Shown: positions 42,711-57,549 of the stretch, piece after piece
How the letters are laid out: each line of letters begins with the position of its first letter
Numbering within the stretch: the stretch's first letter is position 1
Assembly (NCBI GenBank): GCA_963820525.1
Contig: CAWGAA010000003.1
Span: 928,001 to 992,000 of the forward strand
Origin: an uncultured Spirochaetota bacterium
GTDB lineage: Bacteria > Spirochaetota > Spirochaetia > SZUA-6 > Fen-1364
Direction: 5' to 3'
DNA: 64,000 nucleotides
Program-made: the position numbers and the translations under genes
Notes under the pieces: generated by a model
What the model was told of the DNA's origin: nothing
What the model saw: only the letters and a program-made list of their open reading frames with translations
Databases searched by the model: none

Positions 42711-43486
42711 ATGCTTGGAACCGACAGAGAGAGTGAAGGAATACCCAAGTACATACAACTGGCGAAGATACTGAGGGACAAGATCGCGCGGCAGGAGTAC
42801 AAGGCCGAGCAGCAGATCCCGACCGAATCCGAGCTGTGCGATCAGTATAAGGTGAGCAGGATCACCGTCCGTCAGGCCATAAACAGGTTGGTCCAGGAGA
42901 ATTATCTGGACCGCAGGCAGGGAAGGGGCACGTACGTCGTGCACCAGAAGCTGCGGAGGAACATCGCCAAAGTCTACAGTTTCACGCATGACATGGTGAG
43001 CCTAGGTCTCAAGCCCAGCTCGCACACCCTGGAGCTTGAGGTGCAAGAGGCGGACCCGGAGCTGGCCGAAAAAATGAGGCTCCCGGAGAACAACCGTCTC
43101 ATGACCAAGATCCGCCGGGTTCGGTTGGCCAACGGCACGCCGATCCTCGTGGAGACTTCGCTGATCCCGGAGTTCCTCTGTCCCGGGCTGGCGACGAAAG
43201 ACTTGGAGAAAGGCTCCCTCTATCAGATCCTCACCGAAGAGTACCGCGTGCTTCCCCACCACGCGGAGGAGACGTACGAGTCCATCATCATGTCGAAGAA
43301 GGATGCCGAGATTCTTGAATGCGGCACCGGCCGTCCGCGGCCTGCTTTCTCGATTCAGCGCATCACGTACTTGGAAAACGGAGCTCCGATCGAGCTCACC
43401 AGATCCGTCGGCAGGGGGACCTGCTCACGTTGGCGATCAACATGGTGGCGGATAAGGCGGATTTCCAGAGAATCGTGGAGTTCTGA
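42711..43486 (+). CDS. GntR/HutC-family regulator (HTH + UTRA), frameshifted near the 3' end as assembled
   Basis: PKYIQLA...PTESEL...VSRITVRQA...QGRGTYV. Extending G5 to G6 at 43414-43418 gives the ending RGDLLTLAINM...VEF* at 43486. Confidence 0.9.
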
Positions 43487-43607
43487 GCGCGGCGCCAATT
43501 CATCTTCTTCTCCCTCGCGCTCATCAAGGGGATCACTGAGGCGGCCTTTATCGCGCAAGCGGCGCGGGAAAGCCGGACCTCCCGGCCAGGAGAATGGGAG
43601 GCCCCGG

Positions 43608-43771
43608 GAGCCACTTGATGGCCGCGTCGCGGTGGGGGGCTCCCTTGCGCAGGCCGAACGAATCGGAGAGCATGATGAACGTGCCCTGGGTCCCCGGTGA
43701 GGGCGCCCATCCGAAATCGACGTTCGGCGTCAGTTGGAGCGGTGGATGTTGACCGGGATGCTGTAAACCTC
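43608..43771 (-). pseudogene. Remnant of a glucose/mannose-type ABC binding-protein gene
   Basis: Fragments [13 protein letters not shown] and [41 protein letters not shown] abut in different frames. Confidence 0.7.
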
Positions 43772-44157
43772 TGGTTATGGGCTCCATCTTGTTCGCCACG
43801 ACCCAGGTATCGGCAATGCAACCGTCGCGGGAGACGCCGGCTCCAGGGGAAACACATTAGAGCCTCCAGGCTTAAGGGGAGTGGCAAATGCCCGATGCTC
43901 TCTCAACTGGCTGTCTGCCGCTGCCCACCCTCTCCTATTCTTGTGTGAAATGACCGGAGGGGTTAAGTTCTCATATGCTGGTTGGCGGATGCAGGCTTCT
44001 GGGTTGAGCATGGAGAGCATGGCCATGCCCAGGAGGCTGTGCGGCTTTTTTTATAGCGAAACGTTCTCGTGCGCCTGAAGGCGCGGCGAATAATTTCTAC
44101 TATCAATTGGTGTTGCTCCCGTGCGAAAGCCGTCAAAAGCGAGGACAGGAGGACGCC

Positions 44158-44832
44158 ATGAAAGCAAAGGGCGCTGCAGGGTATGGATACCAGTGGTGGC
44201 TGCGGAAGGACCCACCCCGGTTCGAGGCTCTCGGGCGGGCAGGCCAGAGGATCACGGTCATCCCGCAGCTGGACACGGTCGTGGTATTCACGGGCGGGGG
44301 ATTCGAGCCGGGGGACGTCGGCGCGCTCATCGGGAAGGCGCTGCGCTCGGATCGCCTGATCCCCGAGGACCCGGCAGGCTACGCGATGCTGCAGGCAAAG
44401 ACTGCCGCGGCGGCCGCTGCGCCGGCTGCGCAGCCGGTGCCGGCATTGCCTTCGACCGCTCGAGAGATCTCCGGGAAGCGATATGCGCTGGAGAAAAACG
44501 CCCTCGGTCTCGTCTCCATCGGTTTCACCTTCGACGGGGGTGACACGGCCCGGCTCGACCTGGAAGTCACGGACCGCCGCGAGTCACGGCCGATAGGGCT
44601 CGACGGCGTCTATCGCGTCTCACGGGAAAGTCCCGAAGAGCAGCCCGTCGCGATCCGTGGCGAATGGCTGGGCGAGAAGGAGTTCGGCTTCACCTACAAC
44701 GAGTTCACCACGGCGCAGAACACGATCGCGCGCGCGGCCTTTGCAGCGGACGGCATCACCCTCAAGCTGAGAGACCCCGACGACGACCTGGACATGACGA
44801 TCAGAGGCCATACTGAGGAGCAACTGCGATGA
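44158..44832 (+). pseudogene. C-terminal part of a beta-lactamase-like serine hydrolase, catalytic region missing
   Basis: GYGYQWW...ALGRAGQRITVIPQLDTVVVFTG directly follows the start; no SxxK motif. Confidence 0.7.
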
Positions 44833-44919: not shown

Positions 44920-45294
44920 TCAACTTCCGGCGGGTTTCGCTACCTGCAACTTCAAGCTGTCAATGTCGACGGCGATATCGAAAACGCGTTCGAGGCGCGT
45001 GATGGAGAAAACGGAGCGGACCTGCTCGTTCATGCCCGCCAGCTTCAACGTCCCGCCCGCTTCCCGCGCGAGCTTGTACCCCGAAACGAGGGCCGCCAGC
45101 CCGGAGCTGTCGATGAAGGAAGTCGCTGAAAGATCGACGAGGAGGGTGCTTCCGCCTTTTCGTACCTGCTCCTTGAAGGCGGTTTTCACTTCGAGCTGGC
45201 TGGCGGCGTCGAGCCGCCCCGTAAGAGTGAGAACCACCACCGACTTCGTCACCTGTTCGGCCGATACTATCATGCTCATGGGACTTGTCTCCAT
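44920..45294 (-). CDS. STAS anti-sigma-factor antagonist (RsbV/SpoIIAA-like)
   Basis: GRLDA, VDLSATSFIDSSGL with the phosphorylatable Ser, VFSITRL. Confidence 0.93.
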   Translation of the reverse strand: METSPMSMIVSAEQVTKSVVVLTLTGRLDAASQLEVKTAFKEQVRKGGSTLLVDLSATSFIDSSGLAALVSGYKLAREAGGTLKLAGMNEQVRSVFSITRLERVFDIAVDIDSLKLQVAKPAGS

Positions 45295-47285
45295 TATTGC
45301 ACCTTTGAATCATACGTGGGGAAAAGAAACGCGGGAGGTCTCGGGTTCCATCCCGTGGGCGCCTTGTACAGGGCGGCGCGCAAGATCACCGAGAGTGTGG
45401 CGATATTGTAGATCGCCCATCCGACATTCACAAGAGCTCCCACGTTCGCGGCCTGCGCGCCGATAGCGACCCGTATGACGGTCACCGCGATCGCAGCGAA
45501 GGAGATTGCCACCGTGACTGCCTGCACGCTCACCCGGGAGAGGTAGTTGCCGCTCTGGCGCTGCTTGGGCGTCACCTGGAAATGGACCTTCCTGCTGAAG
45601 ATCGAGCCCAGGACCGCGCGGATCCACAGCGGGAACAGGCACAGGGTGTACTGCTCCGTGCGCCGCGTCGAGAGCCCCGAGGTGACCAGGCGGAACATTA
45701 CCTTGTTCACAATGAAGAAAGGGATAAACCGGATGCCGAAGTCGAGCGTCCAGCCGATCACGGGGGCAATGCCGGTGAGCAGGAAGAAGACCGGAGAAAA
45801 GACGTAGAGAAGGTGGGCGAACCCGCTGAAGTACGCGAAAATGGTCGTGAAGTACTGCAGCCGTTGGGCGAACGAGAGACCCCCACGAAAAAGCAGAGAT
45901 TCGCGGAAAAGAACCTGAAGCGTTCCTTGCGCCCAGCGCAGCCTCTGGGTGAGCGCTGATCCAAGATCTTCCGGCGCGAGCCCGTATGCGAGGATCTCAG
46001 GGTGGAAGACGCTCCTCCACCCCCGGGCGTGCAGGCGGATCGCCGTCGCCATGTCCTCCGTCACGCTGATCGTGGACATGGCATTGACTGCGATCGCCTC
46101 GTTTTCGCGGGCGAGCACCCTCCCTTCCTCGAACCGCCCCGCGAAGGACTCGGGCCCGGCGGTTTCCTTGGCAAGGGTCTCGGAGAGCGAGGGCAGCTCC
46201 TCGAGGATGGAACGGCCGGCCTCCCGCGCCGCCTCGTCCCCCTTTTCGCCGAGCTCCGCCAGCTCGCGGCCGATCACCTCGAGGTTCCTTTCCGCCTGGA
46301 TGCTGTCTGCTCTCTGTCCCCCCTGCCGGAGCGCCTCCGCCGCCTTCTCCAGCGGCTCCCCGGCCGCCAGCATCGCGCGGGCTCGGCGCGCTGCCTCCGA
46401 AAGTACGAGCTTTGCCGCCCTCCCCGCGGTCGGCGTGACACCGGCGCGCCGCGCTTCCTTCCGCATCCGCGCGATGGCCGCTTCCATATCCTTCTCGGCT
46501 TCCTCGGCGTATTCCGCCAGTCCGATCTGCATCAGAGCCTCCCTGCGCAGCACCGCGTTGGAGCCGCAGAAGAAGGCCGCGTTCCATCCGTCCTTCCCCT
46601 GCATGATGGGCCCGTAGAACAGGGGGGCGTCGGAGCCGAAGGGATCCCCGGGAGGCAGGTTGTAGAAGTATTGGGGCGTCTGGACGAAGGCGAGCTTGGG
46701 GTCGCGGAAGTAGCCCATGATCCTCTTGAGGATCTGCGGCGTGGGAATCTGATCCGAGTCGAGAATCAGGATGAACTCGCCGCTTGTCTGGAGCAGGGCA
46801 TTGTTCACGTTCCCCGCCTTCGCGTGGCGCGGCTTGCCCTTCCACTCCTCCCCCCGTGTTATGTACCCGCAGGAGAGCTCCGCACAGAGTTCTTTCATCT
46901 CCGGGCGCGATCCGTCATCGAGGATGTAGACGCGTTTGGGCTCCCAGTCGATGCGCAGAGCCGCCTCCGCGGTCAGTCGGACAAGATCGACCGGCTCGTT
47001 GTACGTCGTGATGAAGACGTCGACTTCCTTGCCCTCGAGGGGCTCGGGCGGTTTTCGCCGCTGGGGTTTCCACATCATCAGGATGAACAGCAGGGAGTCA
47101 ATGAAACTGTAGGTCTCCGCCGCGACGAGGAGCAGGGAGAACCAGACCGCACGAGGATCGAAGTTGAGGCTGGCCGTGTAGCGCCATCCCAGATAGACGA
47201 TCCCCGCGGCAATGTTGGCAAACGCGAGTATGCGGAAGACAAACAGGCGTCGGGCCCGGCGCGTCTCGGAGCGATTCTCATTCAT
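45294..47285 (-). CDS. Cellulose-synthase catalytic subunit-like processive GT2, no PilZ domain
   Basis: YNE, DDG, HAKAGN, DSD, QTPQ, FFCGS, TED, QRLRW, FQVTPK; N- and C-terminal TMs. Confidence 0.9.
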   Translation of the reverse strand: MNENRSETRRARRLFVFRILAFANIAAGIVYLGWRYTASLNFDPRAVWFSLLLVAAETYSFIDSLLFILMMWKPQRRKPPEPLEGKEVDVFITTYNEPVDLVRLTAEAALRIDWEPKRVYILDDGSRPEMKELCAELSCGYITRGEEWKGKPRHAKAGNVNNALLQTSGEFILILDSDQIPTPQILKRIMGYFRDPKLAFVQTPQYFYNLPPGDPFGSDAPLFYGPIMQGKDGWNAAFFCGSNAVLRREALMQIGLAEYAEEAEKDMEAAIARMRKEARRAGVTPTAGRAAKLVLSEAARRARAMLAAGEPLEKAAEALRQGGQRADSIQAERNLEVIGRELAELGEKGDEAAREAGRSILEELPSLSETLAKETAGPESFAGRFEEGRVLARENEAIAVNAMSTISVTEDMATAIRLHARGWRSVFHPEILAYGLAPEDLGSALTQRLRWAQGTLQVLFRESLLFRGGLSFAQRLQYFTTIFAYFSGFAHLLYVFSPVFFLLTGIAPVIGWTLDFGIRFIPFFIVNKVMFRLVTSGLSTRRTEQYTLCLFPLWIRAVLGSIFSRKVHFQVTPKQRQSGNYLSRVSVQAVTVAISFAAIAVTVIRVAIGAQAANVGALVNVGWAIYNIATLSVILRAALYKAPTGWNPRPPAFLFPTYDSKVQ

Positions 47286-49623
47286 CGGGTTCAATCCCCT
47301 GAGCCTGTTTTCCCGCAGATGCCACCCGCTTGGAGATACGCCAATGGTTGCTGCATCTCACGCCGTTTTCATGAGAGAGCTCGTCCGTGCATCTCCTGAT
47401 GATGTGCAGCCCATACCCTCCTTCGGGGATGAGATCCAGGTCAGGGGCATGGACAGAGTTAACGTCGAACGGCAGGCCATCGTCGAAAAAGTCGATTGTG
47501 ACCCCCTCGGGCAAAAGCCCGATCTCCAGCCGCACGGCTCCCCGGGTCCCCTGGTAGCCGTGCCGTAGTATATTCGTGACAATTTCCGAGGCTGCCAATT
47601 CGATTTCTCCCGTAAACTTTTCCCCATAGGAGGCGACCGTCTTCGGCACGAAGGCGACGACGTCCTCGAGGGTTTCCATACTGAGGTCAAAGGAGGATAT
47701 GACGCGCCGGGGCAGGGCCTTCAGGACGATCAACGTCACATCATCGGACAGAGGCGCGCCTCCCCGGAACCTTTCAACCTCGTCGAGGATGGACGTCTTG
47801 ATAAGCGACGCCGTCTTCCGCCCATACGCGCACACGATGTTTCGAAGCCTTTCGGCGCCGAAGAGCTTCTCTGCGGGGTCCTGCGCCTCGGAGATACCGT
47901 CGCTGTACAGAACGACGGCATCCCCGGGGAGAAGCACGGTCTGCTCATCCTCCCACTCGCCCGTGGAAAAGATGCCGATCGGCAGCCCCGACGTTTCCAT
48001 CTCTTCGCACGCCCCGGTCAGGTTCCGGTACACAAGCGGCCTGCAACTGCCCGCGTTGGAAGCGATGAGTCGTCCGGAGTCCTCTTCGAGCCGCATGACC
48101 AGCATGGTCACGAAAACCTCCGTTTGGGACAAATCTTCGTGGAGGGCGGCATTGACCTTCGTGAGAATGCGCGCGGGAGAGATCTCATGGGCGCTCTCCA
48201 CGCGGAAAAGCGTTCGGGCCGTCGATGTAAGCAGGGCTGCGGAGATACCCTTGCCGGAGATGTCCCCGAGGGCGATCGTGTGCACTCTCTGCTCCGGCGT
48301 CGAAAAATCGTAGAAATCACCGCTGACGATCCGGGCGGGGAATGCCGCGGCGTCGAAGGAGTATCCTTCGGGGGAGGGGAGACGTCGGGGCAGGAGACTC
48401 TGCTGCACCTGCGCGGCGAGGTCGATCTCCTGTTTGAGCCTCTGCTGGGAGAGCAGCTCCGATTGGGCTTCCTCAAGCTGCCGGGTCCTCTCGATGACCC
48501 CCCGCTCGAGCTTGTCGTTCGCCTCCTGCAGCCATTTCTCGTACTCCTTCTGGGACAGTTCGGCCTTTTTCCTCTCCATCGCGTCCGCTATGAACGTGGT
48601 GACGATTCTTTCGTTGCCCACCTCGACCGCATTCAACCCGACGTCCACGGGGAACTCCGATCCGTTTTTCCTGCGCGCGTAGAGGTCAAGGCCGATGCCC
48701 ATGGGCCGAGGCTTGGGTTCAGCAAGGTACGAGGCGATGTATTTCCTGTATTCCTCCTGGAACCGCTGGGGAAGGATCGCTTCGAGGGTTGCGCCCAACA
48801 GTTCTCCGCGGGTGTATCCGCACATTCTTTCGAGCTCCAGATTGGTGTAGCGGATCACGCCTTTGTCGTCGAAGAGGACGACGCCCACGGGCGCGCTCTC
48901 CATCAAGGAGAGGAAGCGCTGCTCGCTCTCCGTCCGGGCGTCCTCGGCGAGCTTGCGGTACGTGGATCCTGATGCGAACACGGCGCTTGAAACGGTGAAG
49001 GCGAGCGGCGCGAAGTCTACCCAGCTCATATGAAACAGGTAGAAGCTCATGCCGATCCAGGGGAGGACCGCCCCCCAGAGCACGGACCAGAATTGCCGTT
49101 GTTGGAGACGGGGAGAACCGAAGAGGGCCCGGATCAGGAGGATCGTCGCCGCGAGAATGAGGGCATAGGAGTACGCCGCATGAACCCAGTACAAGGGGCC
49201 GTAGACGGCGCGAAGGAATGAGTACGACCCCCGTTGGGCGAGTTCGAGGGAAACGTAGAACCGGCCGTGGCCGCTGTTCGTCCATACGACGGCGTTCACC
49301 ATGAGCGGTTCGATGGCGAACAGGAAGAGACGGCCGGACGTCACCCATCTGTCCCGCTTGAGGTAACTGGCGATGAACAGCAGCCAGAGCGCGGGCGCCA
49401 GCGCGCTCCCCGCGTATTGGAAGTTGGCCCAGAAATGCTTTGACGCAAAGCCGGAAGATGCTTGCTCGAGAATGGTGAAAAAGGTCCACAGGATGACGGC
49501 TCGCAGGAAGGGGGCAAGGTACCGGGAGGGTTGCTTCTTCCTGTGCAGCAATGTGTACAGAAAAACTCCGCAGGCGCTCAGGAACGTGAGAAAGGTGGGG
49601 AAAGTATAGGGCTCAAGCTGCGT
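47278..49623 (-). CDS. 7TM sensor - PAS - PP2C/SpoIIE phosphatase - RsbW-like kinase fusion
   Basis: HisKA_7TM-like N-terminus (WTNSGHG, GPLYWVHAAYSY); PAS; SGDFYD, GDISGKG, YSDG, DDVT; EIVTNILRHG, DDGLPFD, GGYGL. The frame stays open upstream of TTG 49551 to ACG 49623. Confidence 0.9.
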   Translation of the reverse strand, partial: TQLEPYTFPTFLTFLSACGVFLYTLLHRKKQPSRYLAPFLRAVILWTFFTILEQASSGFASKHFWANFQYAGSALAPALWLLFIASYLKRDRWVTSGRLFLFAIEPLMVNAVVWTNSGHGRFYVSLELAQRGSYSFLRAVYGPLYWVHAAYSYALILAATILLIRALFGSPRLQQRQFWSVLWGAVLPWIGMSFYLFHMSWVDFAPLAFTVSSAVFASGSTYRKLAEDARTESEQRFLSLMESAPVGVVLFDDKGVIRYTNLELERMCGYTRGELLGATLEAILPQRFQEEYRKYIASYLAEPKPRPMGIGLDLYARRKNGSEFPVDVGLNAVEVGNERIVTTFIADAMERKKAELSQKEYEKWLQEANDKLERGVIERTRQLEEAQSELLSQQRLKQEIDLAAQVQQSLLPRRLPSPEGYSFDAAAFPARIVSGDFYDFSTPEQRVHTIALGDISGKGISAALLTSTARTLFRVESAHEISPARILTKVNAALHEDLSQTEVFVTMLVMRLEEDSGRLIASNAGSCRPLVYRNLTGACEEMETSGLPIGIFSTGEWEDEQTVLLPGDAVVLYSDGISEAQDPAEKLFGAERLRNIVCAYGRKTASLIKTSILDEVERFRGGAPLSDDVTLIVLKALPRRVISSFDLSMETLEDVVAFVPKTVASYGEKFTGEIELAASEIVTNILRHGYQGTRGAVRLEIGLLPEGVTIDFFDDGLPFDVNSVHAPDLDLIPEGGYGLHIIRRCTDELSHENGVRCSNHWRISKRVASAGKQAQGIEPDE

Positions 49624-49806
49624 ATGGCCTCCCGTGCCTCTCCTAGGCTGATTCTCGACTTTGCATGCGCCCGAGTCGTCCGAATCCCGTCACATTTTGC
49701 TCATTTCAAAGTATTGGCGAAATTTCGCCACAAAGGCAACGCCTCGTCAAGAGGAATGATTATCCTCCAAGAGCCGATCGAAGTCGCACCCCGTCAAGGA
49801 AGAGAT

Positions 49807-50616
49807 CTATTTAATCGTAATGGATTGGCCGTGGATTTCAACGTTTCCGGCGCCGCGGACGATCTCATTGCCCAACTCAATGCAGGTTACGTAGTGGTTG
49901 TTGGTGATCAGCCCCTTTCCGAGGAGATAGTCGAAGAAAGCGCTCAGATTCAGGGGACCCTTGAGAATGGGTTTCCGCGCCACGAATGCGATGTAGTCCC
50001 ATGTATTCGCATTTTGCCCGGAAACGTCCCGATGTGCCTTGAGCACCCACACGTCGTAAGTCGCCCCGCCCAGCACCACGGTGTCCTGTCGGGCGCCCGC
50101 CGGCTGCAAGCCGTTATTGAAGTTCCAGATCATGATCTCGTGCGTGACGCGATCTCTGGTGGCGGGCAGAGCGGAGACGGCCCAGAAAGAGAAAGCCATA
50201 TTGCAGACGCCGTTGACGTCGATGGTGATGTCGAAATCTGCCGTCATGCTTCTCGAGCCGACTCGAAAAGGCATCTGATCCGTGAGGCCCAGAGGTTCAC
50301 TCCAGGGCGAGTCTCCGTAAACAACCTCGGGATACGCCACGACTACGAAGCCGGCCGGCCACGACCATTGCCAGCCAAAAGCTCGCTCGCCTTCCTTCTC
50401 CGACTCGAAGACGAACTGCTCGTGAGGGCCCAGCGCGGCATTCTTGTTCCAGACATTGTTCACGACAACGGACCCGTTCCCGAGCAGGATCTGTCCGCCA
50501 TCTTCCGAAGTCTGCTGAAGAATTCGGCTGCTTACAGGGGGAGTCCGGATGGAGGCGCACCCCGCCAGAAGAACCAGGAAAACCAAAGGCAAGAGGCGAA
50601 TCCACGGGAACTTCAT
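49807..50616 (-). CDS. GH12 endo-beta-1,4-glucanase, lipoprotein
   Basis: Lipobox LAGC; NNVWN, AYPEV, EIMIW (nucleophile), IELGNE (acid/base); AGGAGG RBS. Confidence 0.88.
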   Translation of the reverse strand: MKFPWIRLLPLVFLVLLAGCASIRTPPVSSRILQQTSEDGGQILLGNGSVVVNNVWNKNAALGPHEQFVFESEKEGERAFGWQWSWPAGFVVVAYPEVVYGDSPWSEPLGLTDQMPFRVGSRSMTADFDITIDVNGVCNMAFSFWAVSALPATRDRVTHEIMIWNFNNGLQPAGARQDTVVLGGATYDVWVLKAHRDVSGQNANTWDYIAFVARKPILKGPLNLSAFFDYLLGKGLITNNHYVTCIELGNEIVRGAGNVEIHGQSITIK

Positions 50617-52777: not shown

Positions 52778-53045
52778 TGCCTTCCTTTCCGGATCACTAT
52801 GCTACGCCGCGCTTCTTCTCCGTGTCGAGATGCCGAACGGGTGGTACAGGGGGCAGAACCCCACAGCCGCCAGGGCGGCCCTGATGATCCTGTCCGAAAT
52901 CGATCAAAGATCGTGGGACAAGGATAGGAGAAAACGACGGATCTTTCGGTGACTTCAGTCACACAGGAGCAGAGCTCTCCTCCCTGCCCACGCCCTGTTG
53001 CCCCTCGGTCCCTATCGACCTATAATGCCGGCGTTCAAAGGTTTC

Positions 53046-56652: not shown

Positions 56653-57423
56653 CTACTGAATGGTCAGGCGGTAGTCGGAGATGTGCACGATCCCCTTCCC
56701 CTCTATTATCTCGTTTCCCAGCTCGACGCTTGCGATGTGGAGGTCCTTTGTCAGGATGCCCTGGTCTACCAGGTAATCAACGAAGCCGCTCAGATCCAGC
56801 GGGCCCTTGAGGATGGGCTCTCGCGCGACGAAGGCGGTCCCGCCGACATCGACCGAGCCCGTGAGCTCCCCCGCCGGGACGCCGCCCGACGCGTCTCCAT
56901 GGCATCCCTTCAGGTACATGTCGAAGGCGGTCCCGCCGACATCGACCGAGCCCGTGAGCTCCCCCGCCGGGACGCCGCCGTTGTTGGCGATCCAGATCAT
57001 GATCTCGTGGGTGATGTTGTCCTTGGTGCCCGGAAGAGCAGATACGGGCCACAGCTCGAACGCCATGTTGTAGGTCCCCGTCGCTTCCAGGCAGATGTCG
57101 TAATCCGCCACGATCCTCTTCTCTCCGACATGGAAGGGCATCTCCCGCGCGAGGCCCCGGGGCTGGTCCCACGGCCATCCGAACGCAGGCTTTCCCTGAT
57201 AGGTTTCCAAGAAGACGGTCTCCGTATACGGGCCGGAGGTGGCGCCCTTGTTCCACACGTTGTTGAGAACGACGTATCCTTCGCCGTGAAATATCTGAGC
57301 GTAATCCTGCGACAATTCCTTGAGAATCCGACGCGCCGAGCCCGTCGATGCCGTTGAGCTGCATCCCATGAATACGAGCAGGCAGACCGCAAGAATCGAA
57401 AGCGCGACGCGAGCTCTTCTCAT
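56653..57423 (-). CDS. Second GH12-like lipoprotein with an in-frame deletion and duplication, possibly inactive
   Basis: Lipobox FMGC; NNVWN, EIMIW, VELGNE; lacks the AYPEV segment and has a duplicated 19-aa stretch. Confidence 0.8.
   Translation of the reverse strand: MRRARVALSILAVCLLVFMGCSSTASTGSARRILKELSQDYAQIFHGEGYVVLNNVWNKGATSGPYTETVFLETYQGKPAFGWPWDQPRGLAREMPFHVGEKRIVADYDICLEATGTYNMAFELWPVSALPGTKDNITHEIMIWIANNGGVPAGELTGSVDVGGTAFDMYLKGCHGDASGGVPAGELTGSVDVGGTAFVAREPILKGPLDLSGFVDYLVDQGILTKDLHIASVELGNEIIEGKGIVHISDYRLTIQ
56829..56979. repeat. Exact 58-bp direct repeat inside the second GH12 gene
   Basis: Identical copies at 56829-56886 and 56922-56979. Confidence 0.92.
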
Positions 57424-57549
57424 GAAAAAGCCTCCCTCTGGCGGTATACTCTGCTCATCCATCCGGAAAATTCAAGCCCCGCGGGCGGTGACAAATCCGC
57501 ACCGCAGTGGTGTTGTAGTATTGAAAGTCCGTCTGAAAAGGAGCATGGA

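Follow-up and report, generated by a model that had tools for sequence, protein, structure and literature searches.

A conserved cassette joining a PilZ-less cellulose-synthase-like enzyme to a partner-switching module, with STAS as its candidate switch

A synthase embedded in a partner-switching module

The 64,000-nt stretch of DNA analyzed here (the window), from the genome of an uncultured Spirochaetota bacterium, contains a cassette of four intact genes on the minus strand that encode, in this order, a GH12 glucanase-type lipoprotein, a membrane sensor with phosphatase and kinase domains, a BcsA-like processive GT2 synthase, and a stand-alone STAS protein. The coordinates confirm the original prediction of four co-oriented genes of which the last three overlap: the sensor and GT2 genes share 8 bp (47278–47285) and the GT2 and STAS genes 1 bp (TAATG at 45294), and the GH12 gene lies 183 bp upstream of the sensor gene with no overlap. 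A putative, weak sigma-70-like promoter in the 3' end of the GH12 gene (49814..49841, minus strand; 9/12 match, not in itself evidence of function) is one of four promoter-like sites found where shuffled sequences lead one to expect 1.3, and it may give the three core genes their own transcription start.

The synthase (45294..47285, minus strand; 663 aa, single copy) was identified by Pfam GT2/Cellulose_synt matches and by its predicted structure (pLDDT 82.7), which matches BcsA first and plant CesA next. The BcsA motifs that had been predicted were all located (DDG123, HAKAGN154, DSD176, QTPQ202, FFCGS238, TED409, QRLRW447, and FQVTPK569), and the protein has the D,D,D,QxxRW signature, the KAG, QxP(H/Q), and FxVTxK motifs, and the membrane channel that characterize processive GT2 enzymes (motif list of PMC6821405, section 5). 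In the model the last helix ends at residue 638, which leaves the predicted tail of 25 aa, and a Pfam scan found no PilZ match in the protein. It scores 356 bits against a cut-off of 699 for the CelA equivalog (TIGR03030), and the 96.7% complete genome (5.05 Mb) contains no BcsB or BcsC match; it encodes a spirochaete-type FlaA, which makes a spirochaete the probable host. Genome-wide we found matches to 8 STAS, 15 GGDEF, 9 PilZ, and 14 sigma-70 region-2 domains, among which only the cassette STAS falls in the window; the claim that the window holds no bcsB, bcsC, diguanylate cyclase, or sigma factor therefore agrees with the profile searches, which matched none there.

The catalytic domain is interrupted by an all-helical insertion of ~145 aa (residues ~253–400; 46086..46529, minus strand), recognized from the model and the alignment, which is a candidate regulatory surface. 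It expands the spacing between FFCGS and TED to 166 residues, as against 20 in BcsA, and its location corresponds to that of the plant class-specific region (definition of PMC12430437). Four long helices are predicted in it (pLDDT mostly 70–90), the first of which has counterparts in all three branches of the clade described below. An ESM Atlas search with the insertion gave a best score of 0.81, under the reliable range, and was not used. A complex prediction for GT2 and STAS, with the STAS entered without an alignment, scored 0.27 against a mark of 0.32 and weighs neither way. Some window-type synthases (P0032, P0056, and P0095) have a helical-repeat-like N-terminal extension of ~110 aa with no Pfam match.

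The sensor (47278..49623, minus strand; 781 aa from an ACG start) is the predicted 7TM-PAS-PP2C-RsbW fusion, and its HisKA_7TM (PF16927), PAS (PF00989), SpoIIE (PF07228), and HATPase_c_2 (PF13581) domains each exceed the Pfam cut-off; it stays under the NCBIfam cut-offs for RsbW, SpoIIAB, SpoIIE, and SiaA. The PP2C phosphatase domain (47719..48276) contains metal-binding aspartate motifs and the RsbW/SpoIIAB-type serine-kinase domain (47368..47634) contains N, G1, and G2 boxes, both located by the motifs of their families. No in-frame ATG, GTG, or TTG precedes the first membrane helix, and the gene likely starts at a non-canonical ACG at 49623 behind a GGGAGG ribosome-binding site (49621..49633, minus strand). 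Both elements are conserved in an 80% identical relative (L087, 1209–1221), where conservation starts at the GGGAGG motif, the DNA upstream diverges, and an in-frame stop lies 8 codons upstream; both are also unchanged in contigs of four sequencing runs, some of which may be the source sample. A sequencing error behind the absent ATG is thus ruled out, and the contigs of other runs span all four reading frames with the listed cassette indels confined to the spacer between GH12 and sensor. An ACG start with a 4-nt spacer would hold the kinase-phosphatase scarce relative to STAS, and annotation pipelines would cut off the first membrane helix of such a protein.

The STAS protein (44920..45294, minus strand; 124 aa) is of the RsbV type (PF01740; TIGR00377 above cut-off), with a DSSG motif and Ser63 as the phospho-acceptor, and this serine is retained in 89 of 91 STAS domains from the loci surveyed below. 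The cassette thus has every part of a partner switch, that is, a PP2C phosphatase, an RsbW-type kinase, and a STAS protein with a conserved serine, with catalytic motifs intact, and by analogy with established partner-switching biochemistry the kinase and phosphatase presumably act on that serine. The same genome encodes two further PP2C/STAS/kinase clusters that lack a synthase (G000 C2:297247-298685 and C1:2069259-2071387), and cross-talk among the modules is possible.

Conservation of the linkage across phyla

A homologue search scored 3842 sequences, and PilZ was found in none of the 120 homologues listed. Gene neighborhoods were surveyed in the best 80 of 597 confirmed genome loci, a non-random choice, together with 20 metagenome loci and the window, resulting in a sample of 101 loci (L081–L086 were excluded); Pfam scans of neighbors covered 67 chosen proteins from related loci. 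Of the 85 loci whose flank is long enough to judge, 78 have a STAS gene on the strand of the synthase and no more than 1.3 kb downstream of it; a 23-bit downstream ORF in L074 was counted as a missing STAS. The in-clade STAS HMM used here still scores five unrelated STAS proteins of the window's genome above the threshold. Among the 63 loci with both flanks, the window included, 58 have STAS, 50 PP2C, 53 the kinase, and 49 all three, and a PP2C-kinase fusion like that of the window was found in 12 loci. Six loci keep STAS without PP2C and kinase and one shows the reverse. STAS is the most faithful partner of the synthase.

The loci come from genomes labeled Spirochaetota, Chloroflexota, Actinomycetota, Cyanobacteriota, and Myxococcota, and from Pseudomonadota plasmids. 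The sole Myxococcota contig stops before the module could show, and a contig labeled Acetobacteraceae (L028) was not counted as Pseudomonadota because it has Nostoc-like sequence and gene order, sits among Nostoc rows in the tree, and is probably mis-binned. Four proteobacterial plasmid synthases of ~600 aa have the module within 4 kb (STAS in three, PP2C in four, kinase in two). As a control we used 24 loci of out-of-clade synthases, 6–10.5 kb each and three of them with less than 1.2 kb downstream, from which the plasmid matches H2–H4 and H13 had been removed when they turned out to be in-clade; a single STAS gene turned up in these loci, 2.4 kb from the synthase and on the other strand, and neither PP2C nor the kinase was matched in any of them. 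Two of the control synthases have short tails, so PilZ loss alone does not bring STAS.

Sigma factor genes were matched in only three scanned loci (L064, L069, and L073). The genome of the window contains no SigB/F/G-type sigma factor above cut-off (best 139 against 234 bits); three of four other carriers likewise lack one, and Gordonia G103 has one. The survey thereby answers an expectation of the original prediction, in that GT2-STAS synteny without sigma factors is kept across six phyla and set apart from the out-of-clade control: the cassette is real, conserved, and specific.

In phylogenetic analysis the window-type, cyanobacterial, and proteobacterial synthases form one clade apart from BcsA, with an SH-aLRT support of 98 in a quick search of 58 rows and of 100 when insertions were removed and 24 outgroups used (43 rows). 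The tail after the gating-loop motif measures 65–106 aa in 98 full-length members of this clade and 227–301 aa in BcsA. Distances between GT2 and between STAS proteins correlate (rho 0.79, 54 dereplicated loci), which shows co-inheritance only. The distribution of the synthase is patchy: it was found in none of 24 genomes of the same family, none of 300 others in the phylum sample, two of 301 Actinomycetota (one being the center of the sample), and 44 of 301 genomes of one cyanobacterial order.

Members of the clade vary in other respects. In L075, L053, L067, L060, and L071 (Mycobacterium aurum, Gordonia, Rhodococcus, Dietzia, and Williamsia) genes for a GH26-like protein, a REC-PP2C protein, synthase, STAS, and kinase follow one another in a single row, a candidate glucan synthase system of environmental mycolata. 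The proteobacterial ~600-aa members (L108, L109, L110, and L116) show QRFKY for QxxRW and SED for TED (both in L108–L110), L109 and L110 contain DUF3131 genes and OpgC, and the product of the proteobacterial enzymes may differ from cellulose. Relatives of the same order as the window (L082–L085; G035 and G040) have another, out-of-clade synthase fused to GH5 in frames of 1113–1177 aa, and a GH5-fused synthase locus (L142) lacks the STAS module.

The GH12 lipoprotein (49807..50616, minus strand; 269 aa) is an accessory rather than a core component. It matches PF01670 (Glyco_hydro_12, E 2.7e-18) and carries a lipobox (LAGC, Cys20); its best solved match is the endo-beta-1,4-glucanase 2JEM (E 6e-22), and in keeping with the jelly-roll family its catalytic glutamates E160 and E251 align with those of solved GH12 enzymes. 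Close to the nucleophile, Ser replaces an acidic residue (Asp in 2JEM, Glu in the paralogue) both here and in L087, whose 64% identical orthologue adjoins the cassette downstream in convergent orientation, with a GH3 gene upstream. GH12 was found linked to the synthase only in the window and in L087, the closest relative, with a GH12 HMM built from two sequences that distant GH12 neighbors may escape, and the idea that it is a fixed substitute for BcsZ (a GH8 enzyme and a fixed operon member) is weakened accordingly. Other loci have GH10, GH26-like, GH3, GH16, or DUF3131 proteins or no recognized hydrolase; GH10 follows STAS in three loci, and 9 of the 63 loci have GH26-like and 22 DUF3131 genes. 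BcsB is present in five other clade loci and OpgC or PIG-L genes in some. The variety of hydrolases beside the synthases suggests that the synthase is commonly accompanied by a periplasmic beta-glucan hydrolase, with the enzyme itself being exchangeable; such a partnership supports a beta-glucan product without fixing its linkage.

A second GH12 gene lies ~6 kb from the first (56653–57462, minus strand; 46% identical). It contains a direct repeat of 58 nt without mismatches and lacks a segment; contigs of other runs differ at both places, and the window is probably mis-assembled there. Three runs also have ~30 extra bases at window position 52899, between a CoA-disulfide-reductase-like gene and an adenylate cyclase gene. 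On the other side of the cassette, a 241-aa ORF (44107–44832, plus strand) without a Pfam match resembles the C-terminal part of a serine hydrolase, and the GntR gene before it (42711–43700) seems extended beyond its UTRA domain, possibly as part of a rearranged stretch.

Fusions into the synthase and the proposed mode of control

Two kinds of fusion tie module components to the synthase physically. In many cyanobacterial enzymes an RsbW-type kinase (Pfam E 1.6e-18) is nested within the catalytic domain, between DD and KAG; this form accounts for 8 of the 101 loci and for all 120 homologues listed in a further search, whose sources include Leptolyngbya PCC 7376, Pleurocapsa, Acaryochloris, and Calothrix. 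Among the 44 synthases from the 301 genomes of the cyanobacterial order, 16 have the nested kinase as judged by length and full match, six of them checked by HMM, and STAS follows immediately downstream in all six nested-kinase loci that were fetched. The shorter cyanobacterial insertion is the same sequence without the kinase (hhalign probability 100). In a model with a mean pLDDT of 71 and a poorly modeled catalytic C-half, a long helical hairpin bears the nested kinase at its tip, and the kinase matches SpoIIAB/RsbW structures. One cyanobacterial-type synthase (P0256) has a 229-residue insertion between DD and KAG with no kinase match, possibly a decayed nested kinase. We do not claim that the nested kinase is ancestral in cyanobacteria, a grouping with a support of 90–95 in the first tree that was no longer resolved after insertion removal. 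Sequence homology between the cyanobacterial insertion and the plant P-CR is likewise not claimed: the best phmmer stretch to plant CesA is the catalytic core, and only the position matches. Homology of the window-type and cyanobacterial insertions is ruled out by an hhalign probability of 0.1, like that of a reversed control.

The other fusion was found in a window-type synthase (P0252) that carries a STAS-like domain at its C terminus, at the position of PilZ, with Pro replacing the phospho-serine. Its cluster comprises five near-full-length records that are 98–100% identical (P0397, P0398, P0400, and P0403 included) and two fragments named Mycobacterium sp. The fusion surfaced only in a profile search; a search for long proteins with the window STAS gave four matches and no GT2 fusion. 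The serine-less fusion favors activation by STAS, because a lineage could hardly retain an inhibitor that never detaches.

In the standard model, bacterial cellulose synthases are switched by cyclic di-GMP (c-di-GMP) acting through PilZ. We propose that in this cassette the sensor probably sets the phosphorylation of STAS and STAS directly gates the PilZ-less synthase in place of c-di-GMP. The membrane sensor, through its 7TM and PAS inputs and its phosphatase and kinase domains, would determine whether Ser63 is phosphorylated, and STAS would then dock on the cytoplasmic face of the synthase, perhaps at the helix after the FFCGS-REAL segment or at the site that PilZ occupies in BcsA. The choice of STAS as the gating partner follows from its being kept when the other components are lost, translationally coupled to the synthase, and once fused in the place of PilZ. 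The unphosphorylated form is the likelier activator, given the serine-less fusion and the precedents of All4160 and SypA discussed below, and a 7TM/PAS signal favoring the phosphatase would turn synthesis on. The product would be a beta-glucan, a cellulose-type polymer being somewhat likelier than a mixed-linkage or other one; because BcsB and BcsC were not found, its deposition here would be periplasmic, with an exchangeable hydrolase (in this lineage GH12) doing the trimming. The earlier claim that the STAS state controls the synthase is supported in part, by the conserved synteny and by the two kinds of fusion, which point to direct control.

It is tempting to extend this proposal, although with confidence just short of even, to the whole branch of cellulose synthases including the cyanobacterial "plant-like" enzymes. 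Such a branch would have swapped c-di-GMP/PilZ gating for a direct STAS phospho-switch, with STAS as a dissociable stand-in for PilZ and the "PCR-like" insertion as a helical stalk on which an RsbW-type kinase is still mounted or from which it was lost. The CesA of Synechococcus 7002, the one genetically tested member, would in that case hold an unrecognized protein kinase.

A number of observations weigh against direct gating by STAS. The downstream STAS is missing in 7 of the 85 loci, the locus samples are non-random with close kin over-represented and HMMs built from in-clade genes, and the STAS fusion is confined to one species-level lineage with a domain under the Pfam cut-off. Because the window-type and cyanobacterial insertions are unrelated, the clade has no single large docking domain in common. 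BcsA freed of the PilZ-linked arginine is reported to show constitutive activity, and for such an enzyme a partner that inhibits would be the better fit. The genome retains 15 GGDEF and 9 PilZ matches, and in one clade locus (Sphingobium L108) a stand-alone PilZ gene lies just upstream of the synthase. In cyanobacteria the STAS/PP2C/kinase layout also occurs without a reported adjacent synthase (HcyA-D, PMC9127174), the Anabaena RsbW-type kinase All2284 binds the sigma factors SigC and SigE, neither of the SigB/F/G type (PMC13712970), and alr3758 has its own HetR-dependent promoter and has been interpreted as acting on a sigma factor (PMC4192349).

Some of these points would fit an indirect route, in which the partner of STAS is a diguanylate cyclase or other effector encoded elsewhere, and the enzyme is then gated by c-di-GMP or by a PilZ protein in trans. 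Sinorhizobium BgrV-BgrR and Pseudomonas SiaC-SiaD are precedents, BgrV repressing a cyclase dedicated to mixed-linkage glucan (PMC13438883, as a secondary citation), and apart from the GGDEF and PilZ matches already mentioned a GGDEF gene lies ~5.7 kb from the synthase in L059. However, the short tails of the clade leave no known c-di-GMP-binding domain, no cyclase or PilZ family recurs among the identified neighbor families, and the two fusions would be left unexplained, so that we consider this route unlikely. Marginally less likely still is the canonical arrangement, in which a sigma factor or FlgM-type target encoded elsewhere is held by the kinase domain and the output of the module is transcriptional, its own operon being a possible target. 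Because All2284 binds SigC and SigE, a missing SigB-type gene does not exclude sigma control, and the genome has 14 sigma-70 region-2 matches, L073 an ECF sigma gene near the kinase, and Gordonia G103 its SigB/F/G factor. Yet all but three loci lack a sigma gene, and transcriptional control needs neither STAS-synthase coupling, nor retention of STAS alone, nor a kinase within the catalytic domain; moreover, HcyC bound none of three sigma factors tested (PMC9127174), and HenR does not act via hep transcription (10.64898/2026.04.08.717354).

Information could also flow in reverse, with the synthase as input and its substrate or activity state modulating the kinase or sequestering STAS to report UDP-glucose or envelope status. 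The linkage and fusion data are directionless, and the geometry of a kinase at the hairpin tip could signal both ways; on the other hand the cassette already has inputs on its phosphatase (7TM, PAS, GAF, and REC), no other output gene recurs, and the PilZ-less synthase would otherwise lack evident control, which makes this direction improbable, somewhat more so than sigma control. Least probable is that the genes are co-regulated neighbors without a mechanistic link, traveling as one mobile block under a shared promoter. The patchiness of the synthase, absent from all 24 same-family and all 300 other phylum-sample genomes, is as expected after transfer; the link nonetheless persists at 45–50% synthase identity despite gene reordering, strand changes, and three different fusions, and it is absent from out-of-clade synthases.

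Should STAS gate the synthase directly, a second gating logic would exist for the BcsA fold, the reading of the cyanobacterial "PCR" insertion in debates on the origin of plant CesA would change, and there would be a means of increasing the cellulose that cyanobacteria make natively. For STAS proteins that control polysaccharide, SypA among them, the targets are still unknown. The cassette offers a candidate for both target and regulator, with a single serine to mutate, and can be studied in tractable organisms (Synechococcus 7002, Anabaena 7120, and Arthrobacter); an acknowledged open question on PilZ-less enzymes becomes directly testable.

Comparison with known systems

The window synthase shares its fold with BcsA of Rhodobacter sphaeroides and E. 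coli (Foldseek E 1.8e-26, TM 0.58–0.66) as well as the D,D,D,QxxRW, KAG, QTP, and FxVTxK motifs. Unlike BcsA it has no PilZ domain, no BcsB or BcsC in the genome, a 145-aa insertion, a place in a separate clade, and half the CelA cut-off score. The PCR-type synthases of cyanobacteria (Alr3757, Npun_F1469, and SYNPCC7002_A2118) are likewise PilZ-less, with about seven membrane helices as in the window enzyme. Nostoc/Anabaena proteins that agree with the published PCR-type definition fall in the same clade, and alr3758-all3759-alr3760 encode STAS, REC-SpoIIE, and HATPase_c_2 proteins. However, the PCR-type insertion, which can include a kinase, separates DD from KAG, whereas that of the window lies between FFCGS and TED and is unrelated; the DD-to-KAG distance, where the definition places the insertion (between U1 and U2), is 32 residues in the window against 125–150 or ~273, and the PCR-type partners are DUF3131 and a BcsC-like barrel. 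As judged from sequence, the window GT2 is a sister branch of the PCR-type synthases and not a member. The 2025 review that defines them calls their mechanism and partners unresolved, and "anti-sigma" does not occur in its available text (PMC12430437). A2118 has 788 aa and exceeds the Nostoc enzyme by ~90 aa owing to an insertion that the searched text of PMC4851311 does not identify; "kinase" and "ATPase" are absent from that text, and the length of A2118 would fit the nested-kinase form. In Synechococcus 7002, a wall layer sensitive to cellulase depends on cesA, whose overexpression alone did not markedly raise cellulose, and this relative provides the only product evidence within the clade, which is genetic and from labeling.

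We found no paper that links this synthase clade to partner switching, in a search that mostly did not reach subscription journals; the earlier statement that no mechanistic description is known holds for this clade but not for other enzymes, where related ones exist (Anabaena All4160 and Sinorhizobium BgrV). Among cyanobacterial clusters the STAS-phosphatase-kinase layout is found most often (44.4%; PMC13712970), and "cellulose" was not found in the main text and supplements of that paper that were searched, whose accessory-domain sheets could record the nested kinase. A Klebsiella block with a cellulose synthase, three DUF3131 genes, OpgC, an anti-sigma factor, and an antagonist has been noted without a mechanism in the available text (PMC12974863), PMC12267927 and PMC10673042 offer, in the parts available, annotation only, and PMC8256260 and PMC4517449 were also drawn on.

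The closest functional precedent is the HenR/Alr3423/All4160 system of Anabaena, a sigma-independent partner switch proposed for a polysaccharide enzyme in which the unphosphorylated STAS is active (10.64898/2026.04.08.717354; journal version PMC13555669). There, in contrast to the cassette, the All4160 STAS is fused to a Bac_transf sugar transferase and not a processive GT2, the genes are unlinked, and enzyme activity was not assayed; Alr3760 is not among the two kinases that bind the All4160 STAS (10.64898/2026.04.08.717354). In Vibrio fischeri a single kinase and phosphatase protein, SypE, controls a stand-alone STAS, SypA, post-transcriptionally within a polysaccharide locus, again with the unphosphorylated form active; unlike the cassette, the Syp locus has 18 genes, a REC input, an unknown target, and no BcsA-type synthase. 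The BgrUVW-BgrR/BgsA system of Sinorhizobium meliloti likewise places a GT2 beta-glucan synthase under a partner switch but the signal runs through a diguanylate cyclase to a C-terminal domain of BgsA that binds c-di-GMP (PMC13438883). The Bacillus RsbU/RsbV/RsbW-SigB and SpoIIE/SpoIIAA/SpoIIAB-SigF systems have the same three domain types and the phospho-serine motif, and the nested kinase matches SpoIIAB/RsbW structures, whereas the cassette lacks a cognate sigma gene and its domains stay under the equivalog cut-offs. None of the parts is new in itself, and a 2026 precedent exists for sigma-independent partner switching on a polysaccharide enzyme.

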